NCBI GenBank assembly: GCA_016932735.1 | Contig: JAFGCI010000006.1 | Coordinates: 127,144 to 191,143 of the forward strand | Origin: Candidatus Aenigmatarchaeota archaeon | GTDB taxonomy: Archaea; Aenigmatarchaeota; Aenigmatarchaeia; QMZP01; QMZT01 | Direction of reading: 5' to 3' | Length of the DNA: 64,000 nucleotides | Shown here: positions 11,369-12,574 of the stretch, piece by piece | Layout: every line of letters starts with the position of its first letter | Position numbering within the stretch: position 1 is the first letter of the stretch | Notes under the pieces: generated by a model | Seen by the model: the letters and a program-made list of their open reading frames with translations, nothing else | Told to the model about the DNA's origin: nothing | The model's database searches: none | Translations under genes and position numbers: made by a program

Positions 11369-11908
11369 CTACTCCACCAAATACTCCCAGCCCGGCTGCC
11401 ATGCCTTCTTTTTTCTCCAATCGCAGGAGATTGCCTGTTCCCAAGTCTTTCCTTTTGTAAGAACTTCCAAAGCCAGTTGCGGGGCTTTGTGGGCGACTAT
11501 TGCAATATTCTTATCCTCATATTTCTTCTTCAGGAACAGGAGAAAATCTGATATCCTGTTCTCAACGTCTTTGAGGCTTTCGCCGTTCGGGAATGGAATG
11601 TCTATATGTTCCTCATATACGACTTCATGTTCGCTGGATTGTTGCAGATCGCCGTAATCGCATTCCCTCAGTCTTTTATCTGCAATGATATCATTTCTGT
11701 CTTTGAATACCAGTTTGGCAGATTCTATCGCCCGTTTCAGATCAGAGCAGAAAACCAAATCGAAATTCTTTCCCTTTATCTTTTCCGAAAGCTCTTTTGA
11801 CTGCCTTATTCCGAGTTCAGAAAGCTCTCCATGAGCCTGACCTGTGGAAATCCCTTTCTCGTTATCGGTTGTTGTCCCATGGACAAAATAAGTGATTCTG
11901 ACAGCCAT
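11369..11908 (-). CDS. Histidine phosphatase (PGM-like) family protein, RHG motif variant VHG
   Basis: YFVHGTT, LSELG..Q, SDLKRA..SA, LRECDYG, PNGES, IVAHKA. Confidence 0.85.
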   Translation of the reverse strand: MAVRITYFVHGTTTDNEKGISTGQAHGELSELGIRQSKELSEKIKGKNFDLVFCSDLKRAIESAKLVFKDRNDIIADKRLRECDYGDLQQSSEHEVVYEEHIDIPFPNGESLKDVENRISDFLLFLKKKYEDKNIAIVAHKAPQLALEVLTKGKTWEQAISCDWRKKKAWQPGWEYLVE

Positions 11909-11954
11909 AATAATAGAAATAATCTAATAATTAAATAAAAAGCCCCGAGCGGGA

Positions 11955-12047
11955 ATTTCAGCGGAGTGTACTTCATCTCTTCTTTTCATGATGAGTAACA
12001 CGTTAGGGAAGCACGAAAGCAGGCTTGCTTCTTTAGCTTCTCTCCGT
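11955..12047 (-). other. 93-nt tRNA intron at position 59/60 (T-loop) with BHB-like splice motif
   Basis: Central helix TTCA/TGAA, bulges AA|A and AT|T, exon helix GCGGG/CCCGC, intron helix CGGAG/CTCCG with one extra C. Confidence 0.88.
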
Positions 12048-12088
12048 TTTGAACCCGCGACCTCAGCGTTACCAACGCTGCGCTCTAC

Positions 12089-12200
12089 TTCCTGAGTTTT
12101 CATTCTTCTTCCACTTGAGTGCTTCTTTGCGAACGCAAATTCAGAAAGACGCAGATGAAATCTGCGTCAATCCGGCCTTTGCTTCTGGAAAGAAGGCCTC
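12089..12200 (-). other. About 112-nt tRNA intron in the D-loop (after position 20) with BHB-like motif
   Basis: Central helix CCTG/CAGG, bulges GT|G and AA|G, intron helix AG/CT; junction ambiguous by 2 nt (112 or 114 nt). Confidence 0.82.
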
Positions 12201-12254
12201 ACCAGGCTGAGCTATCGAGGCATCTTGAACGAGCGTTTACATGCGAGTTTAAGA

Positions 12255-12275
12255 CATTGCACTTTAGTGCACATG
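12255..12275. repeat. Bulged hairpin element, copy 1 (CATTGCAC-TTTA-GTGCACATG)
   Basis: Same arms as 40050-40072 with a different loop. Confidence 0.55.
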
Positions 12276-12316
12276 TAGACGCACGGATTATGGATTATTG
12301 GGCATTTTATTTTAAA

Positions 12317-12574
12317 TTACTTTTCAGGCCTCTGCCAGACAACTTTCCCTTTTTCGAGGACGACTTTTATCCGGTGGAAGGGGATTTCATGCTCTTTCCC
12401 GTCCTCTCCAACGGTAGAAAATGAGAACTTATCGCCTTTTCTTATCCTTATTTCGTCGAAAGGCCGGTAGAATATGTCGTCGGAAACTCTGTCGTAAATG
12501 CCTATCTCAAAATCGTTCGGGTCGAGACTCTCGTCCCATTGTATCTTATTCAGAAGCTTCTGAATAGGAATCAT
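12317..12574 (-). CDS. DUF504 / MJ1316-family small protein (predicted RNA cyclic-phosphate end recognition)
   Basis: LLNKIQWD, IGIYDR, IPFHRI..V...G..VW.R family signature. Confidence 0.85.
   Translation of the reverse strand: MIPIQKLLNKIQWDESLDPNDFEIGIYDRVSDDIFYRPFDEIRIRKGDKFSFSTVGEDGKEHEIPFHRIKVVLEKGKVVWQRPEK

Follow-up and report, generated by a model that had tools for sequence, protein, structure and literature searches.

The locus described here lies on the minus strand of the window, which is the whole 64,000-nucleotide stretch of DNA that was analysed, and extends from position 12221 to 11941. It sits in the 408 nt that separate a histidine-phosphatase gene (11369-11908) from a gene for an MJ1316 domain protein (12317-12574), both of which are carried on the same strand. 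Within its 281 nt are three exons and two introns that together constitute a tRNA-Thr(GGU) gene. An earlier note on this DNA had placed the exons at 12221-12201, 12088-12048, and 11954-11941, and these three pieces do join into a complete cloverleaf with the sequence GCCTCGA-TA-GCTC-AGCCTGGTGTA-GAGC-G-CAGCG-TTGGTAA-CGCTG-AGGTC-GCGGG-TTCAAAT-CCCGC-TCGGGGC-T. All 21 of the 21 stem pairs form, with a single G-U pair located in the acceptor stem (GCCTCGA/TCGGGGC). The D stem (GCTC/GAGC) is followed by an anticodon arm of CAGCG-TTGGTAA-CGCTG, in which GGT is the anticodon, and then by a variable loop, AGGTC, and a T arm, GCGGG-TTCAAAT-CCCGC. The conserved positions U8, A14, G18G19, and U33 are present, as are the T-loop sequence TTCAAAT and the discriminator U73.

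ARAGORN identifies the spliced sequence as tRNA-Thr(ggt) in either of the two splice registers considered below, and it finds no tRNA when given the unspliced DNA of the locus. As had been foreseen in the earlier note, the gene is also overlooked in the window by standard annotation, both by ARAGORN and by Rfam at the gathering score. Introns account for 205 of the 281 nt (73%), in good agreement with the original estimate of about three quarters. In the register that we prefer, exon 1 (12202-12221, minus strand) supplies the 5′ strand of the acceptor stem, U8-A9, the 5′ strand of the D stem, and the D-loop through G18G19 (GCCTCGATAGCTCAGCCTGG). Exon 2 (12048-12087, minus) comprises A21, the 3′ strand of the D stem, the anticodon arm, the variable loop, the 5′ strand of the T stem, and T-loop positions 54-59. 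Exon 3 (11941-11954, minus) provides U60, the 3′ strands of the T and acceptor stems, and the discriminator U73, and CCA is not encoded. The register of the earlier note adds T12201 to exon 1 and G12088 to exon 2. A split or permuted tRNA gene is ruled out because the three exons follow one another in order on a single strand, all within 281 nt. We also considered the possibility of self-splicing introns. A permissive Rfam scan of 11850-12350 for a group I or group II ribozyme core returned nothing better than E = 0.64, and the inserts are only 93-114 nt long.

The second intron (11955-12047, minus) is 93 nt long and interrupts the T-loop between positions 59 and 60. [quoted passage not shown] An additional C shifts the inner helix, CGGA/TCCG, by one position, and so the 5′ bulge becomes a 3x1 internal loop rather than a clean bulge. 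The unconstrained minimum free energy (MFE) structure of the 281-nt precursor, at -102.0 kcal/mol, already contains the acceptor stem, the T stem, and both the TTCA/TGAA and CGGA/TCCG helices, with pair probabilities of 0.82-1.0. For the BHB helix of the T-loop, the corresponding values in the unconstrained ensemble are 0.82-0.89. A separate proposal, that the introns might harbor a C/D-box sRNA, is unsupported. A C-box-like AUGAUGA does lie antisense to intron 2 (Rfam snR64, E = 3.7), but it has no D box downstream. Many T-loop introns do end in CUGA at the 3′ side, but the pairing of UGAA with UUCA accounts for this sequence.

The first intron (12088-12201, minus) resides in the D-loop and, in the preferred register, is 114 nt long and reads TGAGGCC...CAGGAAG. 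Alignment with the consensus of the intron family to which it belongs (family A, discussed below) reveals that its tip is expanded, such that 58 nt (12129-12186, minus) stand in place of an 18-nt loop. The expansion includes a 9-bp hairpin, GACGCAGAT-TTC-ATCTGCGTC, at 12168-12148. A BLAST search detected no other copy of this tip in the genome, and it is lacking in the orthologous intron of G002, a sister species in the same genus. The BHB of the D-loop is less readily predicted than its T-loop counterpart. It is absent from the unconstrained MFE structure and has a pair probability of 0.28. Forcing only the four cloverleaf stems, however, costs just 0.6 kcal/mol, whereupon the CCUG/CAGG helix forms by itself. 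The inner helix comprises 2-3 bp overall and only 2 bp in the register of the earlier note. That note had described a BHB at each junction, one of them slightly relaxed. The CCTG/CAGG and TTCA/TGAA helices that it named are indeed found, but the 3x1 internal loop in the T-loop and the 2-bp inner helix in the D-loop mean that both motifs are slightly relaxed rather than one.

The exact splice sites in the D-loop deserve closer scrutiny. The earlier note placed the intron at 12200-12089 (112 nt) in a strict 3-4-3 BHB arrangement and named AGCCUGGUA as an alternative D-loop. We consider it probable that the alternative is correct and that its main register is off by one base on each side. The predicted exon 1 would then be 12221-12202, the intron 12201-12088, and exon 2 12087-12048. 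Three observations favor AGCCUGGUA over AGCCUGGUGUA. First, the orthologs whose D-loops are free of introns have GG-TA-GAGC at this site in 6 of 6 cases, and the 112-nt solution would add two nucleotides to that loop. Second, in their best or near-best solutions, the other D-loop introns of the genome begin immediately after G18G19. Third, the other family A copies start with T after the splice site, a nucleotide that the 112-nt solution assigns to the exon, and the four closest relatives of the intron (those in the tRNAs for His, Gly CCC, Ser UGA, and Leu UAA) start with TGAGGCC, exactly as does the intron examined here. In addition, the inner helix of the family A copy in tRNA-His is GAG/CTC, and the D-loop intron could form the same pairing in the shifted register.

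The same functional gene could nonetheless be cut at 12200-12089 to yield a 76-nt tRNA with the 11-nt D-loop AGCCUGGUGUA, and we regard this as a credible, if less likely, outcome. It is the only solution that offers a perfect canonical motif, with a 4-bp Watson-Crick central helix (CCUG/CAGG, 4 of 4 pairs), bulges of 3 nt (GU|G and AA|G), and an outer helix that opens with the pair G15.U. The shifted register has a central helix of GCCT/AGGA with 3 of 4 pairs, and the terminal G.A mismatch of GCCU/AGGA counts against it. Also in favor of the canonical solution are the spontaneous formation of its helix once the cloverleaf stems are imposed and the acceptance of its product by ARAGORN. Either choice leaves intact the central proposal of the earlier note, that a tRNA-Thr(GGU) gene here carries one intron in the D-loop and another at position 59/60 of the T-loop, which our data support.

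The region upstream of the gene has also been subject to insertion. The 5′ leader and promoter region (12222-12316, minus) begins with the TATA-like box TTTAAAATA at 12316-12308 (-95 to -87). This position of about -90 is unusually far upstream; in the ortholog of G002 (L007), about 23-31 nt separate the box from the tRNA. The additional leader of about 66 nt includes the repeat module CATGTGCACTAAAGTGCAAT (12275-12256), together with a hairpin, GTCTTAAAC...GTTCAAGAT, directly adjacent to position +1. The T-loop intron of tRNA-Asp (C7:199295-199319) contains the same 25 nt of the leader module with 100% identity, and the T-loop intron of tRNA-Gly(UCC) (C8:~73760) contains a shorter stretch. 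Related copies stand alone at C3:55557, C3:4533, C2:18870, and C5:14209. These occurrences in the leader and at stand-alone sites indicate that some intron modules insert outside BHB contexts too, and they hint at movement at the DNA level. Downstream of the gene is the T-rich trailer TTTTATTTAATTATT (11926-11940, minus), which, judging from its sequence, is likely to be an archaeal termination signal. An antisense open reading frame at 12119-12424 on the plus strand was judged to be spurious; it has no Pfam match and overlaps both intron 1 and the 3′ end of the neighboring gene.

Two other leader elements recur in this genome. Immediately before many tRNA genes there is a variable hairpin followed by the conserved motif TTCCAAAT(G)AT, which ends exactly at position +1 of the tRNA. 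Examples include Gly CCC, Glu CUC, Ala CGC, Phe, Val UAC, Ser GGA, Ala GGC, and Pro UGG, and the motif is present in tandem before Ile GAU and Asn. This motif might serve as a leader-processing signal. The second element, the conserved sequence CATGCCCGC-N-CCAATATAA-N-GCGGGA, is located upstream of the genes for Val(GAC), Ala(UGC), Ser(CGA), Ala(GGC), and Ala(CGC). It forms a GC-rich hairpin whose loop contains a TATA-like box, about 30-60 nt before the tRNAs.

The enzymes relevant to the removal of BHB introns are also encoded by this genome. There is one gene for the tRNA splicing endonuclease EndA, whose 394-aa product includes two PF01974 units and aligns end to end with PDB 4FZ2 (E = 6e-106). 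That structure has been identified as the epsilon2 EndA of ARMAN-2, in which the catalytic triad is Y236/H251/K282 and the ASL lysine is K161. The motifs FRIYFPG, WIHSKHVLHV, and KKTFIL, along with the K in GIYKQG, align with Y236, H251, K282, and K161, respectively. By sequence, then, the genome encodes an epsilon-type, broad-specificity EndA that is a full-length ortholog of the ARMAN-2 enzyme. This class, complete with the ASL lysine, agrees with the expectation in the earlier note that introns at these positions would need an endonuclease of broad specificity. The closest named relatives of the protein are from Aenigmatarchaeota MAGs (60-68% identity), compared with 45-49% for Micrarchaeota. 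One EndA record at 85% identity is labelled Micrarchaeota, which implies that lineage labels are not fully consistent. An RtcB ligase is represented by a 496-aa open frame at C9:128720-130036 (PF01139, E = 7e-171), and RNase P RNA is present as well (79.8 bits, E = 9e-23).

The gene directly upstream of the tRNA (12317-12574, minus) encodes an 85-aa protein with an MJ1316 domain (PF04457, E = 5e-22), and this gene neighborhood is kept in both G001, another member of the genus, and G002. According to the Pfam description, the MJ1316 domain recognises RNA cyclic-group ends, which is the end chemistry made by EndA cleavage.

Given these components, we infer the following order of events in the maturation of the tRNA. 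A precursor of about 280 nt plus the leader would be transcribed and would fold to present a BHB at each intron-exon junction. In the T-loop, exon nucleotides 54-57 (UUCA) would pair with UGAA near the 3′ end of the intron, and the resulting helix would stack on the T stem. The D-loop counterpart would be formed beside the D stem by exon nucleotides around 15-19 (GCCUG) and a CAGG(A) segment close to the 3′ end of that intron. The homodimeric, three-unit epsilon2 EndA could then cut both bulges of each motif to leave 2′,3′-cyclic phosphate and 5′-OH ends, and RtcB would join the three exons. RNase P would presumably remove the leader, and CCA would be added. The mature product is predicted to be a 74-nt tRNA with the D-loop AGCCUGGUA, as we prefer, or a 76-nt tRNA with AGCCUGGUGUA.

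Disruption of this kind is pervasive among the tRNA genes of this 1.18-Mb assembly, which has a G+C content of 43% and is 90.6% complete. Standard tools (ARAGORN with introns allowed, -i0,300, and Rfam at the gathering score) recover only 9-10 tRNAs genome-wide, compared with about 42 loci by our count. To arrive at this count, we used a structural scanner that is anchored on the acceptor and T stems and that allows one insert in each of the three loops. Earlier scans were too permissive, and a clean gap in scores appeared only after conserved nucleotides were included in the scoring. The final genome-wide scan yields 38 loci with scores of 30.4-37.7, including the tRNA-Thr(GGU) gene at 35.3, and noise reaches at most 26.4. 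The total of about 42 adds to these 38 the genes for Leu and Gly UCC, which were found by brute force, one partly resolved locus, and an intact tRNA-Met gene in the window. A scan for further tRNAs with a 5′-half motif produced only noise.

About 33 of the 42 loci have a T-loop insert (59/60), six have no intron, and 36 of 42 (about 86%) are disrupted. Among the 38 parsed loci, 17 carry an insert in the D-loop and 18 carry one in the anticodon loop. Six loci have three introns, and ten have the same combination of D-loop and T-loop introns as the gene described here. Position 59/60 is used with a single architecture in 27 of 30 parsed T-loop inserts. In this arrangement, a TGAA or CGAA located 2 nt before the 3′ splice site pairs with TTCA or TTCG at exon positions 54-57, and the outer helix is the 5-bp T stem. 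The D-loop introns likewise share one common pattern. Thus, within this genome, the gene is no oddity but a representative of the prevailing design. The description of its introns as long also needs adjustment: at 93-114 nt they are indeed long, yet T-loop introns of 129, 144, and 160 nt are found elsewhere in the same genome.

A few of the other tRNA loci merit brief mention. The partly resolved locus (C1:75750-76004) is tRNA-like, with a clean acceptor stem and introns in the D-loop and T-loop, but allowing one insert was not enough to assemble its anticodon arm. The presence of a CTTTTAA loop points to tRNA-Lys(UUU), in which case the anticodon arm would be interrupted more than once. We also noted a tRNA-Ile(UAU) gene with three introns (C9:106206-106422) and a tRNA-Leu gene whose anticodon is read as AAG by ARAGORN (C1:74333-74525). 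Ile(UAU) and Leu AAG anticodons are among the unusual features reported for ARMAN genomes (PMC3239211).

Comparative data provide additional insight into the status of the tRNA-Thr(GGU) gene. A pattern search with exon 2 located the gene in 7 of 40 relatives, with 38-41 of the 41 nt of this exon identical and with all exons colinear with those described here. The gene is intronless in G003, G009, and G020 of the same family and in G036 of the same order, and exon 1 is colinear with these intronless orthologs. There is only an 11-nt T-loop mini-intron in G001 and only a 39-nt T-loop intron in G018, and G002 combines a 72-nt D-loop intron with an unrelated 127-nt T-loop intron. Consequently, three different introns (11, 93, and 127 nt) occupy the 59/60 site of this one tRNA in three species of a single genus. 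In a spliced alignment of the eight orthologs, standard pairs are present in 168 of 168 cells (100%), and this value falls to 33-49% when the partners are slid as a control. Five pairs are changed on both sides, and the covariation score was reached by none of 500 shuffles. Among the five are A7-U66 and G52-C62, which are specific to the lineage of this genome (G000) and G002 and which pair across the introns, such that exon 3 bears compensatory changes matching exons 1 and 2.

From these observations, we conclude with a probability of roughly 90% that the locus is a single, functional tRNA-Thr(GGU) gene of an uncultivated DPANN archaeon, probably a member of the Aenigmatarchaeota, and that its two BHB introns are spliced by EndA. 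An improbable competing view is that the locus is a decaying pseudogene, a former tRNA gene that was disabled by insertions and that is no longer spliced or used. Such a history would fit the fact that three quarters of the locus is insert, the displacement of the promoter box by about 66 nt through yet another insertion, and the marginal stability of the D-loop BHB. However, the GGT anticodon arm of this locus is the only one that the genome-wide scan found in a tRNA context, and there is no second Thr(GGU) gene in the assembly, as the check proposed in the earlier note had called for, although another copy may reside in the missing portion of this 90.6%-complete sequence. ACC and ACU codons are common and together make up 36% of the Thr codons in long open reading frames, and thus a decoder with the GGU anticodon is needed. 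The preservation of 21 of 21 stem pairs and the lineage-specific compensatory changes across the introns also argue against decay, as do the retention of the two-intron layout in G002 and the fact that about 80% of the tRNAs in the genome are built alike. Least plausible by far is a chance cloverleaf-like pattern assembled from three intergenic pieces, because even though a search with two free gaps has many degrees of freedom, the scan with the same freedoms separates real loci (at least 30.4) from noise (26.4 or less) with this locus on the real side, and the near identity of exon 2 to bona fide intronless tRNA-Thr(GGU) genes of relatives refutes the idea outright.

If the locus is accepted as a functional gene, the relationships of its introns become of particular interest. 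All-against-all comparison of 65 introns of the genome revealed repeated families. The family A unit is about 74 nt long and has the form TGAGGCCTTCTTTCC...AAAGAAGCACTCAAGTGGAAGAAGAATGAAAACTC-NGGA-AG. There are 6-7 near-identical copies in this genome, which reside in the D-loops of Thr(GGU) and Ala(CGC) and in the T-loops of His, Gly(CCC), Ser(UGA), Leu(UAA), and Ser(GGA), with 86-100% identity. Over the parts that they have in common, intron 1 of the Thr(GGU) gene matches the T-loop introns of His, Gly(CCC), Ser(UGA), and Leu(UAA), as well as the D-loop intron of Ala(CGC), at 93-100% identity. The main difference among the copies lies in four nucleotides close to the 3′ end, where the intron pairs with its local exon; these read CAGG (opposite CCUG) in the D-loop and UGGA (opposite UUCA) or UGAA in the T-loops. 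Intron 2 belongs to family B, whose members are the T-loop introns of Thr(GGU) and Ala(CGC), about 85% identical to each other, and which was not found outside this genome among the relatives searched. The short T-loop introns (38-41 nt) of Phe, Pro(GGG), Gln(UUG), Met, Arg(UCU), Gln(CUG), and Arg(GCG) form a separate family of the form CACAC-TGCTGA...TCAGCAG-GC-TGAA-AT, with a hairpin that has CTGA in both arms.

Among 22 relatives, family A has one strong copy, at the Thr(GGU) D-loop site of G002, where it is 99% identical to the consensus, and only weak matches elsewhere. The tRNA-His gene, which carries a family A intron here, is intronless in G002 and has an unrelated 44-nt intron in G001. 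The contrast between 6-7 copies in this genome and one copy in G002 suggests recent intron transposition. Judged from sequence comparison, it appears that family A was present in the Thr(GGU) D-loop before the split of G000 and G002 and later spread to other tRNAs in the lineage examined here. It is tempting to speculate that the Thr(GGU) D-loop intron is the founder copy of a recently mobile BHB intron family, but we advance this only tentatively, and the comparison draws on incomplete MAGs, including a G002 assembly that is 84% complete and in 190 contigs. If this founder model is true, then one or two point mutations within a short address segment could suffice to retarget a BHB intron between tRNA loops, and the data would constitute a species-level snapshot of the spread of archaeal tRNA introns in a DPANN lineage with an epsilon2 EndA.

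Standard finders would report tRNA-Thr(GGU), the sole decoder of ACC and ACU, as missing from this genome. Tools that overlook such genes will distort completeness estimates and genetic-code inferences for DPANN genomes, and incomplete tRNA sets in new DPANN genomes have indeed been linked to undetected disrupted genes (PMC5829648). The most useful part of the present findings is the intron-family data, which offer a concrete and datable test case for the movement of BHB introns, a question that has been open since a study of Thermoproteales in 2010.

The kind of gene described here is already known from the disrupted tRNAs of ARMAN-2 and Thermoproteales, but this lineage and its intron density are not described in the disrupted-tRNA literature that we consulted, which extends to 2018. 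The gene shares its BHB, EndA, and RtcB chemistry with the split and permuted tRNA genes of Nanoarchaeum equitans and Caldiarchaeum subterraneum (PMC3218864, PMC3293823), which are also missed by standard finders. Unlike those genes, its exons are colinear and neither trans-splicing nor permutation is needed.

A closer parallel is found in ARMAN-2 (Candidatus Micrarchaeum acidiphilum), where 56% of the tRNA genes are disrupted and where non-canonical and multiple BHB introns, including those at 59/60, have been reported (PMC3239211, PMC3488258). [quoted passage not shown] Both organisms are DPANN hosts with small genomes and a tRNA-Ile(UAU), and both combine the 59/60 T-loop position and relaxed BHB motifs with orthologous three-unit EndA proteins that have the ASL lysine. 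The genome described here nevertheless represents another lineage, as its EndA is nearest to those of Aenigmatarchaeota rather than Micrarchaeota. Its proportion of disrupted tRNA loci is also much higher than the 56% of ARMAN-2, the 59/60 intron is nearly universal, and the introns are longer and fall into repeated families. A survey from 2018 lists epsilon2 EndA for Micrarchaeum and Mancarchaeum only (PMC5829648). An Aenigmatarchaeota-like lineage therefore joins the short list of those with an epsilon2-type EndA, together with near-saturating disruption of its tRNA genes.

The dynamics of the introns are most reminiscent of Thermoproteales, for which intron transposition between tRNAs and between positions has been described (Fujishima 2010, as cited in PMC4033280). 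As in that group, a single tRNA may contain as many as three introns, placed in the D-loop, the anticodon loop, and the T-loop, and near-identical introns occur in different tRNAs and positions, which implies transposition. Thermoproteales are members of TACK and use an (alpha-beta)2 EndA with a Crenarchaea-specific loop, whereas the present host is a DPANN archaeon with an epsilon2-type enzyme. Furthermore, the spread of introns in this genome can be dated to after a species split, and a candidate founder copy, in the tRNA-Thr(GGU) gene, can be named.
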